Shown in pieces: positions 6,693 to 44,700 of a stretch of DNA of 47,889 nucleotides. Position numbers and translations under genes: made by a program. The notes below the pieces were generated by a model. That model was not told the DNA's origin, searched no databases, and saw only the letters and a program-made list of their open reading frames with translations. How positions within the stretch are numbered: position 1 is the stretch's first letter; the number at the start of each line of letters is the position of its first letter. This DNA is from Rickettsiales bacterium. GTDB taxonomy: Bacteria; Pseudomonadota; Alphaproteobacteria; Rs-D84. Location of the stretch: positions 1 through 47,889 of the forward strand of contig JAISGC010000055.1 of NCBI GenBank assembly GCA_031263295.1, read 5' to 3'.

Positions 6693-7469
6693 ATGAGTTT
6701 TATAAAACGAATCTTCGGCAAGAAAGTCAACGACGATTTGGAAGAAATCCTGATCGCCGCCGACATCGCGCCGGATGCGGCGAAAGAGCTCGCGAAGTCG
6801 GCGGATGAAAAAGACCTGCGCGAAAAATTACTAAAATACGCCCGCCGCCTTGAACCTGATACCAATTCCCTGATACCTGATACCCTTTTAATAGTCGGCG
6901 CGAACGGCGCGGGCAAAACGACGACCATCGGCAAACTGGCCGCGCGATGGGCGGGCGAAAACCGCCGCGTAGTCATAGGCTCGGGCGATACTTTCCGCGC
7001 CGCCGCGACCGAGCAGTTGGACATTTGGGCCGAGCGCGCGGGCGCCGAAGTCATCCACGGAACCGAACCCGCGGCCGTCGCGTATAAAACTTTGGAAACA
7101 GACGCGGATGTGAAAATAATCGACACGGCGGGCCGACTTCATAACCGCCAAGACCTGATGGACGAGCTTGCGAAAATCGTCCGCGTTATGAAAAAGCTGG
7201 ACCCGTCGGCGCCGAGCGATACCTGGCTTGTCTTGGACGGCAGCCACGGCCAGAACGCATTGGCGCAGATAGAGTTCTTCAACCGCGCCGCGCCGCTGAC
7301 GGGACTGATTGCGACGAAGATGGACGGGACGGGGCGCCAGGGATTTTTGATAACATACGCCGCGCGCGAAGCCCATCCTCTGCCCGTCATATTCACGGGC
7401 TGGGGCGAGCGCGCCGAAGACCTCCGCCCCTTTTCTGCCGAAGATTTTGTGAATAGAATATTGGACTAG
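6693..7469 (+). CDS. ftsY: signal recognition particle receptor FtsY (compact, no acidic A domain)
   Basis: GANGAGKTTTIGKLA P-loop, DTAGRLHN, TKMDGT motifs of the SRP GTPase NG domain. Stop TAG 7467-7469 lies inside the repeat arm. Confidence 0.9.
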   Translation: MSFIKRIFGKKVNDDLEEILIAADIAPDAAKELAKSADEKDLREKLLKYARRLEPDTNSLIPDTLLIVGANGAGKTTTIGKLAARWAGENRRVVIGSGDTFRAAATEQLDIWAERAGAEVIHGTEPAAVAYKTLETDADVKIIDTAGRLHNRQDLMDELAKIVRVMKKLDPSAPSDTWLVLDGSHGQNALAQIEFFNRAAPLTGLIATKMDGTGRQGFLITYAAREAHPLPVIFTGWGERAEDLRPFSAEDFVNRILD

Positions 7470-7549
7470 GACTAGGATTAGGACTAGGTGTGACTCGCGA
7501 TTGCGCCACAACGCAATAACAACCTCCACCTAGTCCTAATCCTAGTCCT
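7463..7549. repeat. hexad-arm hairpin element H2
   Basis: ggactaggactaggattaggactaggtg pairs with cacctagtcctaatcctagtcc. Loop carries acgcaataacaac. Lies between convergent ftsY and the CPA2 antiporter gene. Confidence 0.9.
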
Positions 7550-7556
7550 AAAACTC

Positions 7557-9242
7557 TTATGAGTTTTGATAATTATCCTTCCGCATCGCCGATTGGACGC
7601 GGTTGATTTCGCGCTCGGAGATTCCGAGTTCCGACATAACGCCGCGCCCCAGCAAGAACGAAGACTCGATTGTCTCGGGCAATGCGACGCGCGCGCCTTC
7701 GGCCAATAATGTCTTTGATTCGTCCAGGTTCCGGGCGCGCGCGAAAATCCGGACATTCTTGGCGGCGCGAATCGCGGCGCGAACGGTTTTCTTCGCAACC
7801 GCCGCATTGTCGAGCGCGATTATCAGCGCCTTGGCGCCGCGCGGCCGCAGCCCGAAGCCCGCCAGGACATCGCTTCGCGTGGTATCTCCGTAATAGACGG
7901 CGAATCCGCGCTCGCGGCCGGACAATACGCGGTCTATGTTCATATCGATGGCGAGATACGGCACCTTTTCGGCGACCAGCATTTTCGCGATGGTCACTCC
8001 GACGCGCCCGAATCCGCAGATTATGACCGCCGGGCGCGCGGGCATTTCAAGATTGTATTTTTTGGCCTTGGCCGCGGAATATAAACTGCCGCGCCCGCTC
8101 AGCCAGTCGTATAGCAACAGGGCCGCGCCGGAGACAATCATCGACAGCATTATGACGGCGATAAGAATCTCGGCATGCGCGTTCGGAATCGAGTCGAACT
8201 TCGCCGCGCGAAGGGTCTGCAAAACCAACAGGCCGAACTCGCCGCCCTGCGCCAGAATCAGCGCTATGACCAGGGCCGCGCGCGCGCGCACTCCGCGCAT
8301 TCCGGCGACGATGTAAATAATCGCGAACTTCAATGCCACCAGCGCCGCCGCGCCGACCAAAATCAGCATCCAGTGTTCGCCCATCAGCTCCACATCCAAT
8401 CCCATCCCGAGCGTTATGAAAAACATCGCGCCGAATAAAGTCTGATAGGGCGCGATGTCGGCGCGCACCTGATACTGATAGAGGCTTTCCGAGAACAGCA
8501 TTCCCGCGACAAACGCCCCGATTCCGACCGGCAGGCCCAGCGCCGCGAATCCCGCGCCGCAGGCCGCGATGGTCAGCAGCACCGCCAGCAAAAACGCGAC
8601 CGGCGACTTTATGCGCGCCACTATTTTCATAAAGGGATTCATAACTACGCGCGCCAGAATTATGACGCCGATACTCAGCATCAGGGTCATAACCGAAACA
8701 TCGATTATTTCCGCGCCAAAGTTCGGAACCTTGCCCGCGAAAACCGGCATCATCGCCAATAGAGGCACCGCGAGCAGCCCTTGGAACAGCAGAATCGAAA
8801 ATGTCTGGCGCCCAAGCCGCGCGGACAACTCGTTGCGGTCGGCCAAGGATTGCAGATTCGCGGACGACGACGACATGGTCAGAATCAGCGCGATCATAAT
8901 CGCGGGCGACAACGGCCACGGCGTGATGAAATAGAGAACCGGAAACAGCGCGGCCGCAACCGCCAGCACCTCGGCCGCGCCGAGCCCGAAGATATGGCGC
9001 CGCATAGACCACAGGCGCTTGAAGTTCAGTTCGAGCCCGAGCGCGAACCACAAAAACATCATTCCGAGTTCGCTCATATAATCAAGGCCGCTGTTGCCCG
9101 CGCCGCCAAATAAACCGAGGGCGCCCGGCCCGGCGATAATTCCGGCCGCGAAAAACGCCAGCATAGGGTTGAGTTTAATCCGCCGCGCCAAATACGACAG
9201 CCCCAGCGCCAGCCCAAGAAAATACAAAACGGAAAGATTCAT
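7557..9242 (-). CDS. CPA2-family K+/H+ antiporter with C-terminal RCK/TrkA-N domain (KefB/KefC-like)
   Basis: About 12 hydrophobic segments followed by a Rossmann-like VIICGFGRVGVTIAKML domain, as in Kef-type glutathione-gated K+ efflux proteins. Confidence 0.8.
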   Translation of the reverse strand: MNLSVLYFLGLALGLSYLARRIKLNPMLAFFAAGIIAGPGALGLFGGAGNSGLDYMSELGMMFLWFALGLELNFKRLWSMRRHIFGLGAAEVLAVAAALFPVLYFITPWPLSPAIMIALILTMSSSSANLQSLADRNELSARLGRQTFSILLFQGLLAVPLLAMMPVFAGKVPNFGAEIIDVSVMTLMLSIGVIILARVVMNPFMKIVARIKSPVAFLLAVLLTIAACGAGFAALGLPVGIGAFVAGMLFSESLYQYQVRADIAPYQTLFGAMFFITLGMGLDVELMGEHWMLILVGAAALVALKFAIIYIVAGMRGVRARAALVIALILAQGGEFGLLVLQTLRAAKFDSIPNAHAEILIAVIMLSMIVSGAALLLYDWLSGRGSLYSAAKAKKYNLEMPARPAVIICGFGRVGVTIAKMLVAEKVPYLAIDMNIDRVLSGRERGFAVYYGDTTRSDVLAGFGLRPRGAKALIIALDNAAVAKKTVRAAIRAAKNVRIFARARNLDESKTLLAEGARVALPETIESSFLLGRGVMSELGISEREINRVQSAMRKDNYQNS

Positions 9243-9264
9243 GGTTGTTCCTTTTTCTGGCGAT

Positions 9265-9273
9265 ATTATATCA
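9265..9273 (-). promoter_or_regulatory. extended -10 (TGATATAAT) upstream of the antiporter gene
   Basis: Minus strand reads ttatGATATAATatcgccagaaaAAGGAAcaaccATG. No convincing -35; that position falls in the H5 arm. Confidence 0.35.
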
Positions 9274-9281
9274 TAAAAGTT

Positions 9282-9367
9282 TAATGACTAATGACTAATA
9301 ACTAATGTCTAATTTCTAATGAGCGGCAATTAGTAATTAGACATTAGTTATTAGTCATTAGTCATTA
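9282..9367. repeat. heptad-arm hairpin element H5 (TAATGAC units)
   Basis: taatgac taatgac taataac taatgtc taatttc taatgag - cggc - complementary arm aattagtaattagacattagttattagtcattagtcatta. About 32 perfectly paired nt. Located in a divergent promoter region. Confidence 0.9.
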
Positions 9368-9456
9368 AAAAAAAGTCCTTGCGTCAAGTTTGCGGTTTTT
9401 GCTAATCTTGCCCGGACGAGGGAAATTGAGAGATTACCCGATAAGGAGTTTTTATT

Positions 9457-10584
9457 ATGAGTTTGGAGTTTTCGGTTTTCAGACAGGCGCTGGTTTCGGC
9501 GCTCGGGCATATGCAGTCCATAATTGAAAAGCGCAATACCTTGCCGATTCTGTCGAATGTCAAGATCGAGGCCGGGGCCGACCTGGTCCTGACCGCGACG
9601 AATGTCGACCTTGAATTGATAGAGCATGTCGCGGCCGATGTTTTGTCCGGCGGCGCGATAACGATACCGGTCCAGATGTTTTACGACCTTGTGCGGAAAT
9701 TGCCCGAGGACGCGGAAATCAAGGTGAAATTGTCCGACGCGGGCGAGTTTGTCGTCTCGTCGGGGCGCTCGGTCTTCAAGTTCCAGACTATGCCCGCGGA
9801 CAACTTCCCGATGATGGTCGCGCCGACCGCGGTCGTAAAGTTCCAGATGAACACGGACGACCTTGCGCGCCTGATAAACCAGACGAAGTTCGCGATTCCG
9901 GCGGACGATGTGCGCTATCACTTGGGCGGAATATATTTCCATATAGACGATAAAAAACTGACCGCGGTCGCGACCGATTCGCAGAGGCTGGCGCTGTGCT
10001 CGATGCCCGCGCCCGCCGGCGCCGAGGCTATGCCGTCGGTTATTCTGCCGCGCCGCTTGGTCGCGGAGGTCGCGAACCTTCTCGGCGATGTGAAGGTCGA
10101 CGATGTGGTGGTCGAGTTGTCCGATACCAAGGCGCGCTTCACGATTGGCGCGGCGACCTTGACCAGCAAGCTGGTTGACGCGCAGTATCCGAACTATAAA
10201 ATTGTAATTCCGAAGAACAACGAGAAAATCGCGACGATGAACACCAAGCAATTCGTGCATGCGATAGACCTTGTGTCCGCCGCGAGCAGCGACAAGACGA
10301 AGACCGTTCAGCTGGGATTCTCTATGAATAAACTGGTCGCGTCGGTGTCCAGCAAAGACGACGGCAATTCGGTCTCGGGCGCGGAGGAATTGGATATTGA
10401 ATACAACAGCGATGATTCGTTCCAGATTCTGTTCAACCTGCGTTTTTTGCTGGACATAGCGAACCAGGTCGACGGCGGGGACAAAGTGTCCTTGGCAATG
10501 CAGGACGCGCTATCGCCCACGCTGATTCGCTCGGCGGCGAAAGACACGGATTCGATGTTCATCCTGATGCCGATGCGGATTTAA
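9457..10584 (+). CDS. dnaN: DNA polymerase III beta sliding clamp
   Basis: 375 aa. MSLEF..FRQALVSALGHMQSIIEKRNTLPILSNVKIEA.. and the C-terminal ..MFILMPMRI are typical of DnaN. SD TAAGGAG upstream; candidate promoter TTGCGT-18-TAATCT. Confidence 0.95.
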   Translation: MSLEFSVFRQALVSALGHMQSIIEKRNTLPILSNVKIEAGADLVLTATNVDLELIEHVAADVLSGGAITIPVQMFYDLVRKLPEDAEIKVKLSDAGEFVVSSGRSVFKFQTMPADNFPMMVAPTAVVKFQMNTDDLARLINQTKFAIPADDVRYHLGGIYFHIDDKKLTAVATDSQRLALCSMPAPAGAEAMPSVILPRRLVAEVANLLGDVKVDDVVVELSDTKARFTIGAATLTSKLVDAQYPNYKIVIPKNNEKIATMNTKQFVHAIDLVSAASSDKTKTVQLGFSMNKLVASVSSKDDGNSVSGAEELDIEYNSDDSFQILFNLRFLLDIANQVDGGDKVSLAMQDALSPTLIRSAAKDTDSMFILMPMRI

Positions 10585-11868: not shown

Positions 11869-11871
11869 CGC

Positions 11872-12020
11872 GCGGTGTTCCCCTCCTTTGGAGGGGTGCC
11901 GCCGAAGGCGGCGGGGTGGTGGCGAAGGTCTGCACTGCCTGCTGCAAGTACCACCCCGTCATTTTTTTGCTTTGCAAAAAAATGCCACCCCTCCAAAGGA
12001 GGGGAACACCACCCCACCGC
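11872..12020. repeat. R1 REP-like inverted repeat (GGTGTTCCCCTCCTTTGGAGGGGTG arms)
   Basis: Left arm gcggtgttcccctcctttggaggggtg, right arm cacccctccaaaggaggggaacacc. Inner ggggtggt..accacccc and the palindrome tttttttgctttgcaaaaaaa. Confidence 0.85.
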
Positions 12021-12737: not shown

Positions 12738-13136
12738 CTATGCCATAAACTGCATCAAAAATTGCGGAATTGTCAGCTGGAACCCGCAGCCCAAGGCGCA
12801 TTGCGCAGTGGTTGTGCAGACGCCCGGATTATTCATCAAAATAGGGCGTCCTGCGGCGGGATATGTCATAGTGCACAGGCAATCCCCATTCGCCGTGCAG
12901 CTTGCGGTGCCGCGGACATGCCTGCCGGTGCAGGCGACGGATGTCGAGCCTGTGACCTGGCTGGCCGCGGGGTTATCCCAGGTTGCGCCAGCCTTGCATC
13001 CGGCGCCGAGCGAGTACTCTCCGCTGTCGCCGTTCCATGTGACGGTCTGCGTCGAACTCAACACGCAGAGCTTCGCGGCGTCGGCTTCGCCGCCGGTGGA
13101 AAACGCCAGCATTGCAATGGCAATAAGTTTTTTCAT
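12738..13136 (-). CDS. small secreted Cys-rich protein, family member A
   Basis: Signal peptide MKKLIAIAMLAFS.., 10 Cys. Shares motifs with 16834..17322 (GDCLCTMTYP vs GDICMCKMTWP; CALGCG vs CASLCGC). SD CAGGGAG. Confidence 0.75.
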   Translation of the reverse strand: MKKLIAIAMLAFSTGGEADAAKLCVLSSTQTVTWNGDSGEYSLGAGCKAGATWDNPAASQVTGSTSVACTGRHVRGTASCTANGDCLCTMTYPAAGRPILMNNPGVCTTTAQCALGCGFQLTIPQFLMQFMA

Positions 13137-13164
13137 AATTTTTCTCCCTGTTTTTGTTTTTTAT

Positions 13165-13321
13165 GCGATGCCTTCCGCGCGGTGTTCCCCTCCTTTGGAG
13201 GGGTGGGCGGGCAACGGCCGGGGTGGGTCTGGTGAAAGGCAGTGCCGTTGTTCGACACCCCCCCGCCGCCCTGCGGGCGGCACCCCTCCAAAGGAGGGGA
13301 ACACCGCGCGAAAGGCATCGC
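13165..13321. repeat. R1 REP-like inverted repeat, inserted in the leader of the Cys-rich gene
   Basis: gcgatgccttccgcgcggtgttcccctcctttggaggggtg ... cacccctccaaaggaggggaacaccgcgcgaaaggcatcgc. It is absent from the homologous leader at 16754-16833. Confidence 0.85.
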
Positions 13322-13376
13322 ATTGTCGGGAAACTTTGGGGCGCAAGCCCGGCGAAGCGCCGAAGGCGCGAAGACG

Positions 13377-13441
13377 GGTCGGGGGGTAGAAATATCATAT
13401 TGAGAATGATCCCACGAGATTGCTCTGCGCGGCCCCCGACC
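13377..13441 (-). promoter_or_regulatory. candidate three-way-junction leader RNA, copy L1
   Basis: Minus strand: GGUCGGGGG-[CCGCG..CGUGG]-[AUCAU..AUGAU]-CCCCCCGACC. Homologous to 16686-16753 with stems kept and loops changed. Confidence 0.5.
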
Positions 13442-13471
13442 ATAGCGGGCCGGTCGCATTGACCGGGTGCA

Positions 13472-13584
13472 TAAAAAAAACGGCCTCCGCCGTTATGTTT
13501 TTACGCTCGGATTACGACGCATAAAGCGCGCCGCTCAATATGGGATTTTCTACTTCCCAGAACGCAAGTTTCCCAACTTGGTTC
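13472..13584 (-). ncRNA. candidate small RNA / leader module with its own terminator, copy 1
   Basis: Starts just downstream of the promoter at 13591-13619. Contains hairpin CCAAGUUGGGAAACUUG and the box CGUCGUAAUCCGAGCGUAAAAAC, and ends in AACGGCGGAGGCCGUU + U8. Homologous to 16553-16666. Confidence 0.5.
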
Positions 13585-13590
13585 CCTATC

Positions 13591-13619
13591 ATTATAGATG
13601 TTATGCATTTTTTTGTAAA
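13591..13619 (-). promoter_or_regulatory. sigma70-like promoter TTTACA-17-TATAAT
   Basis: Minus strand ccctTTTACAaaaaaatgcataacatcTATAATgat. Nearly identical context to the promoter at 16518-16546. Confidence 0.65.
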
Positions 13620-13626
13620 GGGATTT

Positions 13627-13729
13627 TTAACGACCAACTACTAACGACTAGTGACTAGTGGCAGCGCGACGGCGGGCACCCCACTAGTCACTAGTCGTTA
13701 GTCACTAGTCGCTAGTAGTTAGTCGTTAA
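13627..13729. repeat. heptad-arm hairpin element H6 (CTAGTGA/CTAACGA units)
   Basis: ttaacgaccaactactaacgactagtgactagtgg - loop - ccactagtcactagtcgttagtcactagtcgctagtagttagtcgttaa. The right arm carries two extra heptads. Confidence 0.85.
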
Positions 13730-13733
13730 AAAA

Positions 13734-14501
13734 TTATTTCAGCACCGCGCGGATGCGTTGCGCGGCGTCGCCGTTATACTTGAACAAGTCCTTGAAGTCC
13801 GCGTCTTTCGGCCACCTGCGTCGCAGGTCCCCGGTTATCTCGCCGTTTTCCGCATTCTCTTCCAAGAGATCCGCAAACTGCGCGCCCGCGATGTAGCAGT
13901 TGGAATTGTTCGCGGTCCTGCAAATCTCGGCGACATCTGCGTAAATCGCGACCGCGTCCGGCAGCCGCCCGATGCGAACGAAAACCTCCGCCTTTTTCAC
14001 CAGCGAATAGACATCGCGCGAGCGCCCCGGTATCGCCAAATATTTTTCATAAATCTCTATCTCCTTGTCGGCCATTCCGTGCAGGCGAAAAAACTCGGCG
14101 CGCTCCTTCCAATAAAATCCGACGCGCTGCGATATGTCGGTCAGCTGCGAGTTCAGGCCGCGTAACGAATCGGCGACCTGCAATTCCGAAATCGCGCGCG
14201 CGAAATATTTGCGCTTCGCGTCCTCGCCGCAGGCCTCCAACGAGAGGCGATTCAGAATCTTGGCGCGTTCCAAATAGTCCGACGCGCCGTCGCTGCCGAG
14301 TTTTTTCAGCTGCGATTCCAAGACCGAAACGACGCGGTCGCAAGCGGGCGCGGTCGGGTCGATGGATTCGGCCGCCGCGGTCGGCGATGATTTTTCGCGA
14401 TGCAAAAAGAACGGCGCAATCAAGAAAAACTCAATCGATAAAACCAGCGCGGCGAACAATCCGCCCAGCGCCCACTTTTTCCATTTTGATGTCTTTTTCA
14501 T
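13734..14501 (-). CDS. membrane-anchored TPR-like repeat protein
   Basis: Start taken at ATG 14501 (AAAAGGAGGGAG SD; MKKTSKWKKWALGGLFAALVLSIEFFLIA anchor). Helical-repeat body (..AEFFRLHGMADKEIEIYEKYLAI..VFVRIGRLPDAVAIYADV..). The ORF-track extension to 14561 runs into repeat D. Confidence 0.6.
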   Translation of the reverse strand: MKKTSKWKKWALGGLFAALVLSIEFFLIAPFFLHREKSSPTAAAESIDPTAPACDRVVSVLESQLKKLGSDGASDYLERAKILNRLSLEACGEDAKRKYFARAISELQVADSLRGLNSQLTDISQRVGFYWKERAEFFRLHGMADKEIEIYEKYLAIPGRSRDVYSLVKKAEVFVRIGRLPDAVAIYADVAEICRTANNSNCYIAGAQFADLLEENAENGEITGDLRRRWPKDADFKDLFKYNGDAAQRIRAVLK

Positions 14502-14517
14502 AACTCCCTCCTTTTTA

Positions 14518-14632
14518 GGGTTCGCGTGATAATCGCCCATCTCGACGCGTTTTTCACCCACTCGCGTATTCTTATACGCTTCGGGGTGAAAAACGCATCG
14601 ACCTGAACGATTCTGACGCGAACACCTCGCTG
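14518..14632. repeat. D element, ~115-nt rod-like imperfect palindrome, copy 1
   Basis: Reverse-complement match to 42787-42900 along its whole length, with compensatory changes in two internal stems. Confidence 0.85.
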
Positions 14633-14641
14633 TTCCTCTCT

Positions 14642-14664
14642 AAAAAATCGCTTCGCGATTTTTC
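14642..14664 (-). terminator. intrinsic terminator downstream of aspS
   Basis: Minus strand aaaaatcgc-gaa-gcgatttttt, preceded by AGGGACT-type heptads that begin at the aspS TAG stop. Confidence 0.55.
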
Positions 14665-14691
14665 TAGTCCCTTGTCCCTAATCCCTAGTCC

Positions 14692-16452
14692 CTACTTTTT
14701 ACGCACTTGTATATGCGCGTCGCGGAGCTGCTGCTCCGAGACCTCCGACGGCGAACCCATCAGCAAATCCTGGCCCCGCTGGTTCGCAGGAAATGCGACC
14801 TGTTCCCGTATCGCATCGTTGCCGACGATTTGCGAGATGATGCGCTCCAAGCCGAATGCGCAGCCCCCGTGCGGCGGCACGCCATAACCGAACGCCGAAT
14901 AAAGCCCGCCGAACTTTGTCTTCACTTCATCTTCGGACAGCCCGACGACCTCGAACAATTTCAGCATAACCGGCCGCGAATAATTGCGCAGACCGCCCGA
15001 ACAAATCTCGTGCCCGTTCAGGACCATATCGTATTGCCACGCCTTTAATTTCATAGGCTCCGACAGGTCGAGATTTTCGAGATCGCCCTGCGGCCGCGAG
15101 AAAGGATTATGTCCGAACGCGATTCCGTTCGGCGCGTTTTCGTCCGCCTCGAAAAACGGGAAGTCTTCAATCCAGCACAGGCGGAACTCGTTCGCGTCAA
15201 TCAGCCCAAGGTCTTCGCCGAACCGCGCGCGCAACTTTCCAGCCGCCTTGGCCGCGGCGTCGATTTTTTCGCAGATGAAAAACACGCTGTCGCCGTCGGC
15301 AAGCCCGCACACACTTTTGATTTTCTCAACGCGCGCGGCGTCCAACTTTTTCGCAACCGGGCCTTTCGCGCCCGCCGCGTCAAATACAATATAACCAAGA
15401 CCCGCCAGCCCGAGTTCTTCGGTCGCGAATCCTTCCGTTTTATCAAACCAAGACCGCGGCTTGTCCGCCGTTTTCGGCGCGGGCACCGCGCGCACGACGC
15501 TTCCGCTCGCGACCGCGTTCGCAAAGATTCCAAAGTCGGACCCGGCGAAAATATCAGACACATCCGAAATCAAAATCGGATTGCGCAGGTCCGGCTTGTC
15601 GGTTCCGTATTTCAGCATCGCGTCGTCAAATGCGATGTGCGGAATCTCGGCCGCAATTTTCGCATCGGGACGAAACGCCTTCAATAATTCCGGAATAATT
15701 TCGTCGCCGAGCGCGTGCACATCGGACTGCTCGACAAACGACATTTCTATATCCAACTGATAAAACTCCAACATTCTATCCGCGCGAAGGTCCTCGTCCC
15801 GCATACAGGGCGCGATTTGGAAATATTTGTCGAAGCCCGCGATTTGGAGCAGTTGCTTGAACTGCTGCGGCGCCTGGGGCAGCGCATAGAATTGCCCGTG
15901 GTGCAGCCGCGACGGGACCAGGAAATCCCGTGCGCCTTCGGGCGACGACACGGTTAAAATCGGCGTCTGAAACTCCGAGAATCCGAGCGACCACATTTTA
16001 TCGCGCAGCCACTTCATAATCTTGTTGCGCAGCAAAATATTTTTGTGCAATGTCTCGCGCCGCAAATCCAGGAAGCGATATTTGTATCGAATATCCTCGC
16101 CGACTTCGTCCTCGCCGAAGACCTGGAACGGCAGCGGATCGGCGGCCGAAAGTATATCGAACTTTTCGACTTTGATTTCGATTCCGCCGGTCGGGAGCTT
16201 GGGATTGATTTGGTCCGCCGCGCGGGCGACAACCGCGCCCGTTATGCGAATGACCGATTCGGGATGGACTTTTTCTATGTCGGCCGGGTCGCCGAAAACG
16301 CATTGCGTGATGCCGTAATTGTCGCGAAGGTCCACAAACAAAAGCCCGCCGTGATCGCGCACGCGATGCACCCAGCCCGACAATACGACCGATTGGCCCG
16401 CGGCCTTTGCCGTCAATTCCCCGCAACTATGAGTCCTGTAAATATTCGACAT
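14692..16452 (-). CDS. aspS: aspartate--tRNA ligase
   Basis: 586 aa. N-terminal OB fold (GWVHRVRDHGGLLFVDLRD) and class II motifs (FYQIAPCMRDEDLRADR, GGLRNY, GVPPHGGCAFGLERI). Confidence 0.95.
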   Translation of the reverse strand: MSNIYRTHSCGELTAKAAGQSVVLSGWVHRVRDHGGLLFVDLRDNYGITQCVFGDPADIEKVHPESVIRITGAVVARAADQINPKLPTGGIEIKVEKFDILSAADPLPFQVFGEDEVGEDIRYKYRFLDLRRETLHKNILLRNKIMKWLRDKMWSLGFSEFQTPILTVSSPEGARDFLVPSRLHHGQFYALPQAPQQFKQLLQIAGFDKYFQIAPCMRDEDLRADRMLEFYQLDIEMSFVEQSDVHALGDEIIPELLKAFRPDAKIAAEIPHIAFDDAMLKYGTDKPDLRNPILISDVSDIFAGSDFGIFANAVASGSVVRAVPAPKTADKPRSWFDKTEGFATEELGLAGLGYIVFDAAGAKGPVAKKLDAARVEKIKSVCGLADGDSVFFICEKIDAAAKAAGKLRARFGEDLGLIDANEFRLCWIEDFPFFEADENAPNGIAFGHNPFSRPQGDLENLDLSEPMKLKAWQYDMVLNGHEICSGGLRNYSRPVMLKLFEVVGLSEDEVKTKFGGLYSAFGYGVPPHGGCAFGLERIISQIVGNDAIREQVAFPANQRGQDLLMGSPSEVSEQQLRDAHIQVRKK

Positions 16453-16517
16453 AAAATAAACCTTTTAACCAGCCGAGCATACAAAAGAAAAATTGGTTCT
16501 GCAAATATAAAAAGCCC

Positions 16518-16546
16518 TTTACAAAAAATCGCAAACCTTTTATAAT
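16518..16546 (+). promoter_or_regulatory. sigma70-like promoter TTTACA-17-TATAAT
   Basis: ccctTTTACAaaaaatcgcaaaccttTATAATgtg. Paralogous to 13591-13619. Confidence 0.65.
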
Positions 16547-16552
16547 GTGAAA

Positions 16553-16666
16553 CGAACCAAGTTGGGAAACTTGGATCAAGGGCCGTGAGAAGCCTTCTTA
16601 AAGCGGTGCGTCGTTTTCGCATCGTAATCCGCGCATAAAAACCTTGACCGCGTGCGGTCTTTTTTT
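16553..16666 (+). ncRNA. candidate small RNA / leader module with its own terminator, copy 2
   Basis: Hairpin CCAAGU-UGGGAA-ACUUGG (16557-16574), box CAUCGUAAUCCGCGCAUAAAAAC, terminator GACCGC-GU-GCGGUC + U7 (16646-16666). Confidence 0.5.
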
Positions 16667-16685
16667 ATGCGCCAATCCCCGTTAT

Positions 16686-16753
16686 GGTCGGGGGGCCGCG
16701 ATAAGTAATTTCGCGGGATCATTACTTTAAGATGATTTCTCAACCCCCTGATC
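16686..16753 (+). promoter_or_regulatory. candidate three-way-junction leader RNA, copy L2
   Basis: P1 GGUCGGGGGG/CCCCCUGAUC, P2 CCGCGA..UCGCGG, P3 AUCAU..AUGAU. Lies 80 nt upstream of the Cys-rich gene start. Confidence 0.5.
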
Positions 16754-16833
16754 GCATCAAGATTTCCCAATGACGCCGCGCCGGACACCAATCATCCGGC
16801 ACGGCCAATAAAAACAAAACAGGGAGAACTCTC

Positions 16834-17322
16834 ATGAAAAAACTATTCGCGATTCTTGCAATCGCAACGACGGCGGCCCCGGCCGCGAAGATGTGCCTGC
16901 GGCACATATACAGTGTCAACGGATACAAATACGCATACAACAACCAGAACGGGGCGTTCGTCCTCGCCGCCGGAAACTGCCGCGGAACGGCGAGCAGCCA
17001 ATGCGGCGGCTATCCGCAAAGCGCGACATATGCGGGCGTCGGCGCGCCGACCGGATACGACTGCGACAATATTTTCGCGGCGGGCATATCGGCCTGCGTA
17101 GGAACCGGAAATGAGCCGACCCAGGACGCCGCCACCGGCGACATCTGCATGTGCAAAATGACCTGGCCGAAGGAATCGAATTGGATTTACGCGGCGACTC
17201 AGCCTTGGTCGACCGGCTATCCGGATTATTGCAGGCAGAACTGCGCGTCGCTGTGCGGATGCCATATGTATAACTCCGCCGCGCCGAACGCGTTCACATC
17301 GGCGATGTTCAGCGGGATATGA
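16834..17322 (+). CDS. small secreted Cys-rich protein, family member B
   Basis: Signal peptide MKKLFAILAIATTAAPAA, 12 Cys, SD CAGGGAG. Shares motifs with 12738..13136. Confidence 0.75.
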   Translation: MKKLFAILAIATTAAPAAKMCLRHIYSVNGYKYAYNNQNGAFVLAAGNCRGTASSQCGGYPQSATYAGVGAPTGYDCDNIFAAGISACVGTGNEPTQDAATGDICMCKMTWPKESNWIYAATQPWSTGYPDYCRQNCASLCGCHMYNSAAPNAFTSAMFSGI

Positions 17323-21656: not shown

Positions 21657-21977
21657 ATGAAAAAACTGCTATTTCTTTTGCCGATGGTTGTTCCCTTCGC
21701 GGGGATGGCCAAGTATAACTGCACGATAAAATACACCAGCTGCAACGAGCAGGCGATACGCAATATCCAGGATCCGGGCGGCCAGAACAAGGTCTGCAAG
21801 CGCAGCTGCACGCCGACGCCCGCCAGCAACTGCGCGCCCGATTCCTGCACGCCGCAGGGAAACCAATGCACAAATTGGAGCACGATTTTGAACAACTGCA
21901 AGACGAAGCCAGCAGCCGAGGTTCTTGGATGCATAGTCAAGGCGGTTCAGGATGTTCCGCAAACGGCAACTTGGTAA
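21657..21977 (+). CDS. small secreted Cys-rich protein C (10 Cys, not obviously related to A/B)
   Basis: Signal peptide MKKLLFLLPMVVPFAGMA. Mature region has spaced Cys (NCT..SCN..VCKRSCTP..NCAPDSCTP..QCT..NCK..GC). Confidence 0.6.
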   Translation: MKKLLFLLPMVVPFAGMAKYNCTIKYTSCNEQAIRNIQDPGGQNKVCKRSCTPTPASNCAPDSCTPQGNQCTNWSTILNNCKTKPAAEVLGCIVKAVQDVPQTATW

Positions 21978-22029: not shown

Positions 22030-22423
22030 GGTGTTCCCCTCCTTTGGAGGGGTGGCCGCGAAGGGCGGCGGGGTGGTGCTTGTCGCTGGCACCGCCAAAA
22101 CCAAAACGATTTCCGAAGGAAATCGTCATACCGGCGAAGGCCGGTATCCACTGCTTTCACGCAAGCCATAACTTATAAATTATAACAAGCCTTCTGGCAG
22201 TGGATCCCGGGTCGACAATCCACCCGGATTGTCTCCGTGCCGGGATGACGAGTTCTTTATGTTATTGCAAAATAGTGAATGTAAGGTTTATAGACCCTAT
22301 CCCCGCCTACGCGGGGATGACAAAAGTTTGCTTTGCAAACTTTTGTTTTGGTTTAGCCAGTGCAAATGTGAAGCACCACCCCGCCCCGCTTCGCGGGGCA
22401 CCCCTCCAAAGGAGGGGAACACC
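22030..22423. repeat. R1 inverted repeat whose arms are split by nested insertion of other elements
   Basis: ggtgttcccctcctttggaggggtg (22030-22054) and cacccctccaaaggaggggaacacc (22399-22423) are about 345 bp apart. The interval holds a GTCAT-family composite element (22098-22354). Confidence 0.75.
22098..22354. repeat. GTCAT(A/T)CC-family composite palindromic element
   Basis: aaaccaaaac-[gatttccgaaggaaatc]-gtcataccggcgaaggccggtatcc ... ccccgcctacgcggggatgac-[aaaagtttgctttgcaaactttt]-gttttggttt. Same layout as 38646-38837. Confidence 0.7.
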
Positions 22424-22490
22424 CGCGTGAAGGCATTGCCACTCTTTCGCTCTTGCATTCCATCCCTAAATCTAATACCATACCGCGGCT

Positions 22491-33578: not shown

Positions 33579-35197
<1,619 letters not shown>

Positions 35198-35377
35198 TTC
35201 TTTTTTATCGATTCTCCGTTCTCTGTTATTTGTTCTCTTTCTCATAAAAAGGTCCCTCCAAATCTGAGGGATGACCGGGGAGTTCTAAAATCAAATATGA
35301 AAAATGACCCCGCAGGCCTTCGGGTTTCCCCTGTTTCATAGCCAGCGGCTCCCCGGCCGAAGCGGGGGCATTGCGCA
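35198..35377 (-). promoter_or_regulatory. candidate riboswitch-like leader, motif copy A
   Basis: Minus strand: GGCCGGGGAGCCGCUGG ... GAACUCCCCGG (helix 35349-35356 / 35275-35282), then CCCUC-agauuug-GAGGG + U5. Related to 42116-42189. Confidence 0.4.
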
Positions 35378-35492
35378 ATAAAAAAAGACGCGGCGCGTCT
35401 GTCTTTTTTGCGTGCGGATAACCGACGCGCGAAGGCGCATCGTTTCATATTTGTGCTTTTAGAAGGCACCGAACTCACATCCCTGTGGATTC
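35378..35492 (-). ncRNA. candidate small RNA module, copy 3
   Basis: Downstream of the extended -10 promoter. Shares GCCUUCUAAAAGC and GUCGGUUAUCCGCACGCAAAAAA boxes with copies 1 and 2. Ends AGACGC-gcc-GCGUCU + U7; the stem is flanked by A- and T-runs, so it is bidirectional. Confidence 0.45.
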
Positions 35493-35498
35493 GGGGAG

Positions 35499-35527
35499 AT
35501 TATATCATAAAAAATAATGGGATGAAA
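35499..35527 (-). promoter_or_regulatory. promoter TTTCAT-17-TGaTATAAT (extended -10)
   Basis: Minus strand cacTTTCATcccattattttttaTGaTATAATctcc. Confidence 0.5.
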
Positions 35528-41644: not shown

Positions 41645-42082
41645 CTAGCGGCACGCGGCGACGGAGTCAAGGAACGCCGCGACCTTTGCGCAGACATCAT
41701 CGGGGCAGTATTTCTTCAACTCGCCCCTGCGTAAATAATTCCTGCACGGGCGCGACGCGCACCGGTCGCAGGCGCCCCAGAAATCCACCGACAAAACCGA
41801 CCGGTCCGCCATCAGATAAATCCGGTCCGTGCCGCGCTCCAAGTCTTCGCGTATCGCATCGCCGAATATTTTCGGGCGAAATCCGAAATCGAACTCCGCG
41901 TGATTGCATGCGGCGAGAGCCGCGCCTATGCGCCGGGCCGCCGCGCATTTTTTCATGACCTCGCGCGGATCCGACACGCGCGGGCACCGCCCGCCATAGA
42001 CGCATGGGCGCGCGCCGTCGCAATGAATCGCGAACGAGATCGACCGCGACAAGGAAAACTGAATCGTCTGAAAGAGCTTCAT
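41645..42082 (-). CDS. Cys-rich hypothetical protein (possible metal/Fe-S binding), no signal peptide
   Basis: 145 aa with 11 Cys (..HCDGARPCVYGGRCP..WGACDRCASRPCRNY..CPDDVC..). GGGGA SD. Family not recognised. Confidence 0.55.
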   Translation of the reverse strand: MKLFQTIQFSLSRSISFAIHCDGARPCVYGGRCPRVSDPREVMKKCAAARRIGAALAACNHAEFDFGFRPKIFGDAIREDLERGTDRIYLMADRSVLSVDFWGACDRCASRPCRNYLRRGELKKYCPDDVCAKVAAFLDSVAACR

Positions 42083-42115
42083 AATATCCCCGCATAAAAA
42101 CCGCCGAGGAGGCGG

Positions 42116-42189
42116 CCGGGGAGTTCATAAATCATTTTGTCGGTGATTCCGCCGCTTTCGGCAAGGCCTTATGGCAAGCGGCTCCCCGG
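42116..42189 (-). promoter_or_regulatory. candidate riboswitch-like leader, motif copy B
   Basis: Minus strand GGCCGGGGAGCCGCUUGCC ... GAACUCCCCGG, followed by CCGCC-uccu-CGGCGG + U5 and then the GGGGA SD and ATG 42082. Confidence 0.4.
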
Positions 42190-42296
42190 CCAAGGCCAGG
42201 GACATAACGGCGCGAGCGCCGGACAAAATGAGCTTATGACAGCCCGAGCCTGCGTATCCTTGCAGGTTCGATTGGAATCATAGCATATTTTTCCGC

Positions 42297-44613: not shown

Positions 44614-44700
44614 TGGTGGCTTTGGCGGGGCTCGAACCCGCACGGTCGCAATGACCAAGGGATTTTAAGTCCCCAGCGTCTACCATTCCGCCACAAAGCC
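44614..44700 (-). tRNA. tRNA-Leu (anticodon UAA), CCA encoded
   Basis: GGCTTTG-TG-GCG-GAATGGTAGA-CGC-T-GGGGA-CTTAAAA-TCCCT-[long variable arm GGTC-ATTGC-GACC]-GCGGG-TTCGAGC-CCCGC-CAAAGCC-A-CCA. Full cloverleaf, class II. Confidence 0.9.

Follow-up and report, generated by a model that had tools for sequence, protein, structure and literature searches.

The DNA examined here (the window) is a stretch of 47,889 nucleotides (nt) from a Rickettsiales bacterium (GTDB lineage Bacteria; Pseudomonadota; Alphaproteobacteria; Rs-D84), positions 1 to 47,889 of the forward strand of contig JAISGC010000055.1 in GenBank assembly GCA_031263295.1, with a G+C content of 55%. Its aspartyl-tRNA synthetase gene, aspS (14692 to 16452, minus strand), lies between two genes for cysteine-rich proteins with signal peptides, one of 162 amino acids (aa; coding sequence, CDS, 16834 to 17322, plus strand) and one of 132 aa (CDS 12738 to 13136, minus strand). 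These genes stand behind leaders designated L2 and L1, respectively. We present here the conserved, structured, strand-specific RNA that the gene leaders contain; sequence comparison indicates a real, multicopy, doubly pseudoknotted leader RNA family that is new and absent from Rfam.

An earlier note, made from the sequence of the window, had reported about 320 nt of homology upstream of the two genes, better conserved than the genes themselves, with a three-way junction at 16686 to 16753 in L2 and 13377 to 13441 in L1. The homology has the reported length, L1 and L2 aligning from the promoter through the end of helix P1, but the note had missed that its upstream part belongs to the same fold. 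The RNA core (16553 to 16753 in L2, 13585 to 13377 in L1) is 71.6% identical between the leaders, against 54 to 56% for the coding DNA, which is barely over the approximately 50% of shuffled controls. The 20-mer GAACCAAGTTGGGAAACTTG occurs exactly twice in the window, with zero occurrences expected, and likeness by chance is excluded. The helices are paired as the note had drawn them. P1 joins GGUCGGGGGG (16686 to 16695) to CCCCCUGAUC (16744 to 16753) in L2 and GGUCGGGGG (13433 to 13441) to CCCCCGACC (13377 to 13385) in L1, where two G-U pairs of L2 are G-C pairs; P2 is CCGCGA/UCGCGG in L2 and CCGCG/CGUGG in L1; and P3 (AUCA/UGAU) is present in both. Isolated segments of 81 nt do fold as a three-way junction (z = -3.95 for L2 and -2.85 for L1, with 0 of 200 shuffles folding as well as either), but the 68-nt junction is not an autonomous motif: it and its L1 twin are the 3' domain of a larger leader RNA.

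That RNA is about 200 nt long (up to about 290 nt in other lineages), and its predicted start lies about 7 nt past a conserved sigma-70-type promoter. Its elements follow in the order hairpin A (usually with a GNRA loop), hairpin B, a B-C linker, hairpin C, a variable hairpin D, an anti-P1 box, and the P1/P2/P3 junction; downstream of the junction, L1 and L2 have a UUUCCC box and then a conserved ribosome-binding site (RBS), CAGGGAGAA-N5-ATG. Two pseudoknots connect the halves. In PK1 (5 to 9 bp), the strand between P3 and the P1 3' arm ("J3/1") pairs with the loop of hairpin B, and in PK2 (7 to 10 bp), the "P3 loop" pairs with the 7- to 10-nt linker between hairpins B and C. The 5' partners lie approximately 130 to 150 nt upstream of the junction strands. 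PK2, P3, PK1, and P1 abut without spacers on the 3' side, as do PK1, the B 3' arm, PK2, and C on the 5' side, so the fold is compact and interlocked.

In L2, on the plus strand, the promoter TTTACA-17-TATAAT (16518 to 16546) matches 11 of 12 consensus positions, with the start predicted at about 16553. Folding and covariation define hairpin A (16554 to 16577, CCAAGUU-GGGA-AACUUGG, a GNRA loop) and hairpin C (16604 to 16624, CGGUGCG-UCGUUUU-CGCAUCG). Between them are hairpin B (16579 to 16596, AGGGC-CGUGAGAA-GCCUU), whose stem covaries and whose loop UGAGAA (16586 to 16591) is the PK1 5' strand, and the linker CUUAAAG (16597 to 16603), the PK2 5' strand. Hairpin D (16631 to 16672), found by folding, is terminator-like and sits inside the fold; it has basal GCGCAU/AUGCGC, A5 opposite U7, and apical GACCG-CGUG-CGGUC followed by U7, and a terminator scan flags 16646 to 16659 plus TTTTTTT. 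The anti-P1 box UCCCCG (16676 to 16681), at a conserved position, could base pair with CGGGG in the P1 5' strand. The 3' domain (16686 to 16753; covariance model score 61.4 bits, E = 2.1e-12) contains, besides P1, P2 (16696 to 16701 with 16711 to 16716), P3 (GAUCA, 16717 to 16721, with UGAUU, 16733 to 16737), and the 3' strands of PK2 (CUUUAAG, 16725 to 16731) and PK1 (UUCUCA, 16737 to 16742). After P1 come the box GAUUUCCCAA (16761 to 16770), complementary to the hairpin A loop and 3' arm and able to form six pairs with the Shine-Dalgarno sequence GGGAGA, and the RBS CAGGGAGAA (16820 to 16828), 5 nt ahead of the ATG at 16834. The complementarity between box and hairpin A spans 16763 to 16771 and hairpin A bases 16561 to 16569 (GUUGGGAAA).

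L1 has the same layout on the minus strand. Its promoter TTTACA-17-TATAAT (13591 to 13619) precedes a 5' domain (13469 to 13584) with hairpins A (13560 to 13584), B (13542 to 13558), and C (13515 to 13533), the PK1 5' strand GUAGAAA (13547 to 13553), the PK2 5' strand AUAUUGAG (13534 to 13541), and a terminator-like hairpin D (13469 to 13506). The 3' domain (13377 to 13441; 45.2 bits, E = 2.5e-8) comprises P1, P2 (13428 to 13432 with 13412 to 13416), P3 (13407 to 13411 with 13393 to 13396), and the 3' strands of PK2 (CUCAAUAU, 13397 to 13404) and PK1 (UUUCUAC, 13386 to 13392). The box AAGUUUCCCGAC (13325 to 13336) can form 12 contiguous pairs with hairpin A at 13566 to 13577 (GUUGGGAAACUU), and the RBS CAGGGAGAA for CDS 12738 to 13136 is at 13142 to 13150.

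The pseudoknots are supported by their variation. Their sequences change in nearly every homologue and complementarity is kept: PK1 and PK2 are UGAGAA/UUCUCA and CUUAAAG/CUUUAAG in L2, GUAGAAA/UUUCUAC and AUAUUGAG/CUCAAUAU in L1, UUCUAAAA/UUUUAGAA and AAAUAUGAAA/UUUCAUAUUU in a third window copy, and UCAUA/UAUGA and AUUUUGUC/GACAAAAU in a fourth. Among loci on other contigs, which carry three-digit numbers, they are UUCAUC/GAUGAA and UAUUGCUGU/ACAGCAAUA in L119, UCGAAA/UUUCGA and UAUCGUCUU/AAGACGAUA in L125, and AUCUCA/UGAGAU and AUGCGUU/AACGCAU in L143. Duplex energies were calculated for 20 distinct sequences from all groups of homologues, with segments set by homology and not by complementarity. 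Cognate partners gave -5.1 kcal/mol for PK1 (non-cognate, -0.4 kcal/mol) and -7.4 kcal/mol for PK2 (non-cognate, -0.6 kcal/mol); 0 of 2000 permutations were as low in either case. No cognate advantage appeared when the partners were swapped (B loop against P3 loop, linker against J3/1). Pairs were counted in a plain, unfitted MAFFT alignment of 13 sequences from groups II and III only, since helices are not of equal length across groups. Every PK2 cell (100%) is paired; both bases vary at five of its nine pairs, with up to four pair types, and both also vary at four of the five PK1 pairs. When the partners are slid by 1 to 3 columns, pairing drops from 99% to 34 to 49%.

P1, P2, B, and C also covary, and their observed covariation score was reached by 0 of 500 shuffles. 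Across the covariation tests, slid controls reduced paired cells from 96 to 99% to 34 to 53%. Hairpin C varies, for example, at pair 153-163, which is UA in 12 sequences and CG in 10, and the hairpin A stem is CGAGUC/GGCUUG in L008, CCGAU/AUCGG in L001, and UCCAA/UUGGG in L141. Three copies that lie outside the search pattern described below keep both pseudoknots with new sequences and add compensations in P1 (U-A to C-G, A-U to U-A). The frequent G-U pairs in P1 assign the structure to the transcribed strand, and PK1 and PK2 tie the upstream hairpins to the junction; thus, the functional unit runs from the promoter through A to D to P1. This double-pseudoknot structure from A to P1 is strongly supported by the comparative sequence data. 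One locus on a low-coverage contig, L142 (4259 to 4647), joins a 5' domain of the L119 class to a 3' domain of the L122 class, and its PK2 strands are mismatched (UAUUGUCUU versus AACUAGAUA); either the assembly is chimeric here or natural recombination has disrupted the pseudoknot.

Homologues were sought by protein, nucleotide, pattern, and covariance model searches, the covariance model being built on the junction, or 3' domain, rather than on the whole RNA. The model finds the element four times in the 48-kb window, with E values of 2.5e-8 to 1.6e-13. Protein-based routes gave two more full leaders (L008, 1410 to 2137, and L006, 520 to 795), and only these two, because assemblies break inside the leader: the contigs of L006 (1 to 20) and L007 (1 to 70) begin 20 to 70 nt upstream of genes of the cysteine-rich family, within the leader or an R1 repeat. 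Such breaks at the repeated leader or R1 sequence mean that copy numbers in metagenome-assembled genomes (MAGs) are underestimated. The AspS protein is at most 74% identical to MAG sequences labelled "Rickettsiales bacterium" or "Alphaproteobacteria bacterium" and 66 to 68% identical to that of Candidatus Enterousia, an alphaproteobacterial genus of uncertain placement. No leader adjoins aspS in the neighborhoods of its closest relatives (L001 to L005); BLAST found a divergent copy in L001, 2.4 kb from aspS and ahead of an unrelated lipoprotein gene.

A scan of metagenomes with a junction pattern returned 30 loci, 25 of which were judged true homologues, on human-gut, rumen, and other contigs of 31 to 46% G+C. 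The other matches (L124, L147, L128, L130, and L131) were judged by eye to be chance, being coding-like and without upstream similarity, and were left out of the model search. The covariance model regained all homologues and the three copies that do not fit the pattern, namely copies 3 and 4 of the window and L038 (4588 to 4675, in an alphaproteobacterial MAG from goat omasum), which are unbiased because they miss it. Pattern and model together yield 26 further copies outside the window's set, on human-gut, rumen, and termite-associated contigs. The pattern has 0 matches in viral contigs, and in 730 kb of unrelated genomes the model gives nothing better than E = 0.14; that match, L098, is coding-like and was dismissed as noise. 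An RBS pattern, AAACAGGGAGAAN{4,6}ATGAAAAAA, was too common in genome contigs to be useful (more than 109 matches), its chance estimate having overlooked the biological enrichment of strong RBSs plus MKK starts; L038 was the only relevant locus among the matches listed.

No known family accounts for the element. Rfam 15 at the gathering threshold gives only tRNA in the whole window and only tRNAs in 15 homologous loci. At E values up to 10, the region 13100 to 17000 gives noise (miRNA and snoRNA models on other hairpins), and the L119 and L143 elements give nothing meaningful. ARAGORN reports only a tRNA-Leu at 44614 to 44700 in the window, so the leader elements are neither tRNA nor transfer-messenger RNA (tmRNA). 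A description of the motif was not found in the literature, which is not proof that none exists. Other identities were rejected: tmRNA, RNase P, 6S, and SRP RNA (conserved motifs missing, element multicopy, ARAGORN and Rfam negative); a leader peptide from the conserved UAUGG (frame lengths differ and substitutions are compensatory, not synonymous); an 11-nt GNRA receptor at UAUGG (partner strand missing); and the P1 3' strand as an anti-Shine-Dalgarno (anti-SD) sequence in group I (L2 alone fits).

The two newly found window copies are on the minus strand. Copy 3 (35246 to 35506; 65.8 bits, E = 1.6e-13, match span 35271 to 35363) has a -10 box (35499 to 35506), hairpins A (35471 to 35492), B (35453 to 35469), and C (35423 to 35442), a terminator-like D (35375 to 35411), an anti-P1 box (35362 to 35368), a 3' domain (35273 to 35358), and a predicted post-P1 terminator (35246 to 35271) that the terminator scan flags, as it does D. 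The gene that follows (34388 to 35245) encodes a secreted protein, of approximately 269 aa if the start is the internal ATG ending at 35197; directly downstream of it is an open reading frame (ORF) of collagen-like G-x-y repeats (34032 to 34481, minus strand). Copy 4 (42096 to 42282; 51.4 bits, E = 6.9e-10, match span 42112 to 42196) is compact and lacks hairpin D. It has a -10 box (42277 to 42282), hairpins A (42249 to 42266), B (42230 to 42245), and C (42208 to 42221), an anti-P1 box (42194 to 42202), a 3' domain (42114 to 42191), and a predicted terminator (42096 to 42116) that has 2 to 3 nt (CC, or GCC with a G-U pair) in common with the P1 3' strand. A 145-aa protein without a Pfam match is encoded behind it (41645 to 42082). 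Hairpin D is variable and peripheral: low-GC homologues have an ordinary hairpin with no U-tract at this place, and only in the GC-rich lineage (L1, L2, copy 3, L006 at 620 to 672, and L008 at 1528 to 1596) is D terminator-like, with an A-tract, a GC hairpin, and U7-8. There it resembles a bidirectional intrinsic terminator embedded between the halves of the fold.

The setting of the element is constant. All four window copies, and all homologues with enough flanking sequence, have a predicted promoter and transcription start in front and a same-strand gene behind, and the promoter is at a constant distance from hairpin A in L1, L006, L008, L001, L038, and group II members. Where no repeat has been inserted, the first long ATG-initiated frame begins 16 to 119 nt past P1 (16 to 77 nt in most), a spacer that is largely terminator. 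The RBS CAGGGAGAA recurs in L1, L006 (twice), L007, L008, and L038. The earlier note had confined the element to two cysteine-rich paralogs, a restriction that does not hold, as the two further window copies and dozens elsewhere precede unrelated genes; every copy found sits in a leader position, contrary to a scattered repeat.

The downstream products that could be classified are exported or surface located. They include autotransporters (L122, L135, and L138, the call for L135 being made from close similarity to the L122 beta-domain and not from a scan), a periplasmic Cu/Zn superoxide dismutase (SodC; L134), a BspA-type leucine-rich-repeat protein (L136), several lipoproteins recognized by their signal sequences, and cysteine-rich secreted proteins (L1, L2, L006, L008, and L119). 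Exceptional or unclassified are two products, one of 66 aa (L125 class) and one of 145 aa (after copy 4). Neither the 162-aa nor the 132-aa cysteine-rich protein has a Pfam domain, and the two are 28% identical across 85 aa (BLASTP E = 0.002). Their family is very small, with about ten cluster representatives in 1.8 billion by exhaustive and profile searches. With the 162-aa protein as query, a homologue search found nothing but that protein, the exhaustive search gave nine weak relatives, and the profile search regained four of them. A third small cysteine-rich ORF with a signal peptide (106 aa, 21657 to 21977, plus strand) weakly resembles the 132-aa protein (tblastn E = 0.007), and the region upstream of it is short, unrelated, and without the leader RNA. 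The L138 autotransporter (7270 to 9700) has a passenger that opens with a eukaryote-like ubiquitin-family domain (PF00240, E = 3.4e-26; also Rad60-SLD), which is unusual in a bacterial surface protein.

Several repeats accompany the leaders. The insertion that the earlier note had placed between the L1 junction and its gene is present: R1, a repeat resembling miniature inverted-repeat transposable elements (MITEs), occupies 13163 to 13323 (minus strand), between the L1 RNA and its RBS and outside the RNA fold. R1, with the core GGTGTTCCCCTCCTTTGGAGGGG ... CCCCTCCAAAGGAGGGGAACACC, is also found at 11869 to 12010 and at 22030 to 22078 plus 22374 to 22439 (span 22030 to 22439) in the window, in L008 (1745 to 2100), and in L007 (1 to 35); it carries a nested insertion twice, and it occupies the same place, between leader RNA and RBS, in three leaders from different genomes (L1, L008, and L007). 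Long near-perfect palindromes of TAGT/ACTA-type words lie just upstream of leader promoters (13630 to 13730 in the window; L008, 1300 to 1410; L038, 4330 to 4420) and could be insulating terminators or another repeat family. Another palindrome, TTAATTGCAATTAA, is found at the -35 region of the element promoter and again just past the terminator in L122 (2440 to 2810), L135, L119, L120, and other group III members. In the L122 class, the RNA and palindrome run straight into an autotransporter gene partway through its beta-domain, the passenger being absent, while L135 has the full gene; the joint suggests recombination or cassette exchange at the palindrome.

The earlier note's proposal of a riboswitch-like or protein-binding regulatory RNA is still the best functional guess that the sequences allow. 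We favor, with modest confidence, a cis-acting, two-state regulatory leader with an approximately 200-nt pseudoknotted fold, and the layout suggests an ON-type attenuator. In the first state, the anti-P1 box would hold the P1 5' strand, and the freed P1 3' strand would complete the stem of an intrinsic terminator, stopping transcription. In the second, the full pseudoknotted fold would form, stabilized by a ligand or protein; closure of P1 would remove the bottom 2 to 4 bp of the terminator beside the U-tract, and transcription would read into the gene 16 to 119 nt downstream. A predicted intrinsic terminator continues from the P1 3' arm, sharing its last 2 to 4 nt, in most members of groups II and III, in L001, and in copy 4. 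The terminator stems covary (CCACCU/AGGUGG, CCGCCU/AGGCGG, AUCGCCUUA/UGAGGCGAU), and in L136 the terminator 3' arm has a G-to-A change that complements a C-to-U change in the shared part. These terminators, at about -8 kcal/mol when complete, retain between -2 and -5 kcal/mol once the P1 3' strand is sequestered (in copy 4, whose hairpin GCCGCC-UCCUC-GGCGG followed by U5 was found by folding and is unflagged by the scan, the values are -8.3 and -3.9 kcal/mol). An anti-P1 C-rich box (CCCCGA type) stands just upstream of P1 in all groups; RNAalifold picks the anti-P1 hairpin in groups II and III, and in copy 4 the box shows a compensatory change (CCCUGG with CCGGGG).

L1, L2, L006, and L008 have no terminator after P1, and the fold is therefore necessarily part of the mRNA there. 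These four leaders have the UUUCCC box 8 to 45 nt past P1, complementary over 9 to 12 bp to the hairpin A loop and 3' arm, with differences that match between copies; in the GC-rich set, 17 to 62 of 5000 within-group permutations did as well. The complementarity is also seen in L038 and L143. Read from the sequence, the box could form six pairs with the Shine-Dalgarno GGGAGA. The output of L1 and L2 is probably translational, the box pairing with either the Shine-Dalgarno sequence or hairpin A; an anti-SD/anti-anti-SD switch is one possible reading, and control at the terminator-like hairpin D is possible alternatively or additionally. This account of L1 and L2 is the weakest step of the proposal. 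The regulatory mechanism as a whole is plausible.

Several observations weigh against this mechanism. The overlap of P1 and terminator is just 2 to 4 nt and is missing in copy 3 and L038. L1 and L2, without a post-P1 terminator, keep the whole fold, so the fold must do something independent of that terminator. Hairpin D, which in this lineage resembles a strong intrinsic terminator, lies between the pseudoknot partners, and termination there would block the fold in cis. Group III shows no complementarity of box and hairpin A. P3 (RAUCA/UGAUU) is conserved but does not covary, in the three pattern-independent copies as elsewhere, and most homologues came from a search pattern that fixed the P1 5' arm and both P3 arms, so that their invariance there is partly ascertainment. 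Contig taxonomy is established only for L038 and the aspS relatives.

A more specific version of the cis-acting switch is tentative, and we regard it as possible but doubtful. The element may represent a new class of riboswitch, in which an aptamer of about 200 nt with two interlocked pseudoknots senses one intracellular, envelope, or host-related signal (e.g., a second messenger) and coordinates an entire set of surface and secreted proteins of uncultured gut Alphaproteobacteria, namely autotransporters, BspA-type leucine-rich-repeat proteins, SodC, lipoproteins, and cysteine-rich secreted proteins. The window's lineage would have been rewired through hairpin D and the anti-SD box, and the copy-specific pseudoknots could let a terminated 5' fragment recognize its own mRNA in trans.

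It is unlikely that the element is instead a stand-alone noncoding RNA (a trans-acting small RNA, or one with a structural or catalytic role) transcribed between a promoter and a terminator of its own, the genes being mere neighbors or reached by leaky read-through. The RNA of groups II and III is indeed bounded by a promoter and a canonical terminator, the terminators of copy 3 and L038 do not overlap P1, and the scan predicts termination at hairpin D of L1, L2, and copy 3 (16646 to 16659, 13494 to 13479, and 35400 to 35386) as well as after P1 of copy 3 (35271 to 35253). Most riboswitch aptamers are smaller and less complex than this double-pseudoknotted RNA, and the pseudoknot sequences of the four window copies are mutually orthogonal, the cognate binding best. 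In a variant of this explanation for the window's lineage, a stop at D could release a 5' fragment of about 110 to 120 nt (A to D) that pairs in trans, via PK1 and PK2, with the 3' domain of the cognate mRNA. Yet every copy is directly ahead of a same-strand gene, usually with no more than 77 nt from P1 to the start; L1, L2, L006, and L008 lack a post-P1 terminator; four paralogous copies in 48 kb, each before a different gene, are the pattern of a cis-element; and no trans target emerged, none having been looked for.

Rather improbable is a constitutive 5' element, for instance a structure for mRNA stabilization or processing, a self-cleaving ribozyme, or a put/EAR-type RNA for processive antitermination, by which RNA polymerase would run past the downstream terminators. 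The fold is kept with and without a downstream terminator, and terminator-like hairpins inside it or just after it must be read through for expression. Long operons are the kind of gene served by processive antitermination, and several downstream genes are very long autotransporters, but many are short (66 to 190 aa). Alternative structures are suggested by the conservation of the anti-P1 box and by the overlap of P1 with the terminator, and Rfam gives no match to put, EAR, or ribozyme models.

We give little credence to a repeated DNA element, mobile or maintained by recombination, whose complementarities would be inverted repeats at the DNA level. The element is multicopy, the genome has the MITE-like R1 inverted repeats, one of them within leader L1, metagenome assemblies break within the element (L006, L007), and a palindrome flanks it in group III. 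Against this, many paired positions are G-U, which are A-C mismatches on the other strand; copies in the same genome are about 70% identical with compensatory changes, rather than identical; the element always faces the same way with respect to promoter, terminator, and gene; neither terminal inverted repeats nor target-site duplications nor a transposase came to light; and viral contigs gave no matches. The minimal alternative, an autonomous 65- to 68-nt three-way junction with an unpaired J3/1 and an ordinary P3 loop as the binding unit, is scarcely tenable and as a complete description is refuted by the pseudoknot energy and pair-count tests: the isolated segment does fold (z = -2.9 to -4.0) and P1 and P2 do covary, but every homologue has upstream segments that are complementary to its P3 loop and J3/1 and covary perfectly with them, and the upstream domain is conserved at a fixed spacing from the promoter.

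If confirmed, the element would be a large RNA fold new to Rfam, with a 5' hairpin domain and a junction domain linked by two interlocking pseudoknots. It would be a leader common to many surface and secreted protein genes, of the kind expected to mediate host contact, in poorly known uncultured bacteria that are gut, rumen, or termite associated. It would also offer a candidate orphan riboswitch or attenuator for ligand hunting, with natural compensatory variants for structural work, and a marker for regulon annotation in MAGs where protein homology gives almost nothing.

Among known systems, MITE and REP repeats (e.g., R1) are likewise multicopy, intergenic, and rich in self-complementarity, whereas the leader RNA is strand specific, with G-U pairs, compensatory divergence, a fixed leader orientation, and a conserved promoter and RBS context. 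HK022 put and Bacillus EAR are also structured promoter-proximal RNAs followed by terminators to pass, some before long surface-structure genes; they have no similarity to it in sequence or fold, and its alternative pairings are not a put or EAR feature. The c-di-GMP-I and -II riboswitches are multicopy leaders before adhesins, secreted proteins, and other surface-related genes. They resemble the leader RNA by regulon only, as an analogy, their architecture being entirely different and without a model match. The raiA motif, OLE, ROOL, GOLLD, and HEARO, none of which cmscan found here, share a complex pseudoknotted fold of 200 to 300 nt supported only by covariation, confinement to particular lineages or environments, and an unassigned function; they are generally free-standing genes or in a mobile or prophage context, while the leader RNA is always a gene leader with several paralogous copies per genome. 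Like the SAM-I, THF-I, and cobalamin riboswitches, transcription attenuators whose aptamers have a multihelix junction and a long-range pseudoknot, it occupies the 5' untranslated region right after the promoter, its P1 3' strand in most members runs into a predicted intrinsic terminator, a candidate anti-P1 segment could compete, junction and loop pseudoknots organize the fold, and peripheral helices (here the distal part of P2, and D) vary in length. It differs from them in matching no Rfam model in sequence or structure and in a terminator overlap of only 2 to 4 nt that some copies lack; its genes encode exported and surface proteins rather than a metabolic pathway, so no ligand can be guessed. 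It differs, too, in having a separate 5' hairpin domain, which two interlocked pseudoknots connect to the junction.

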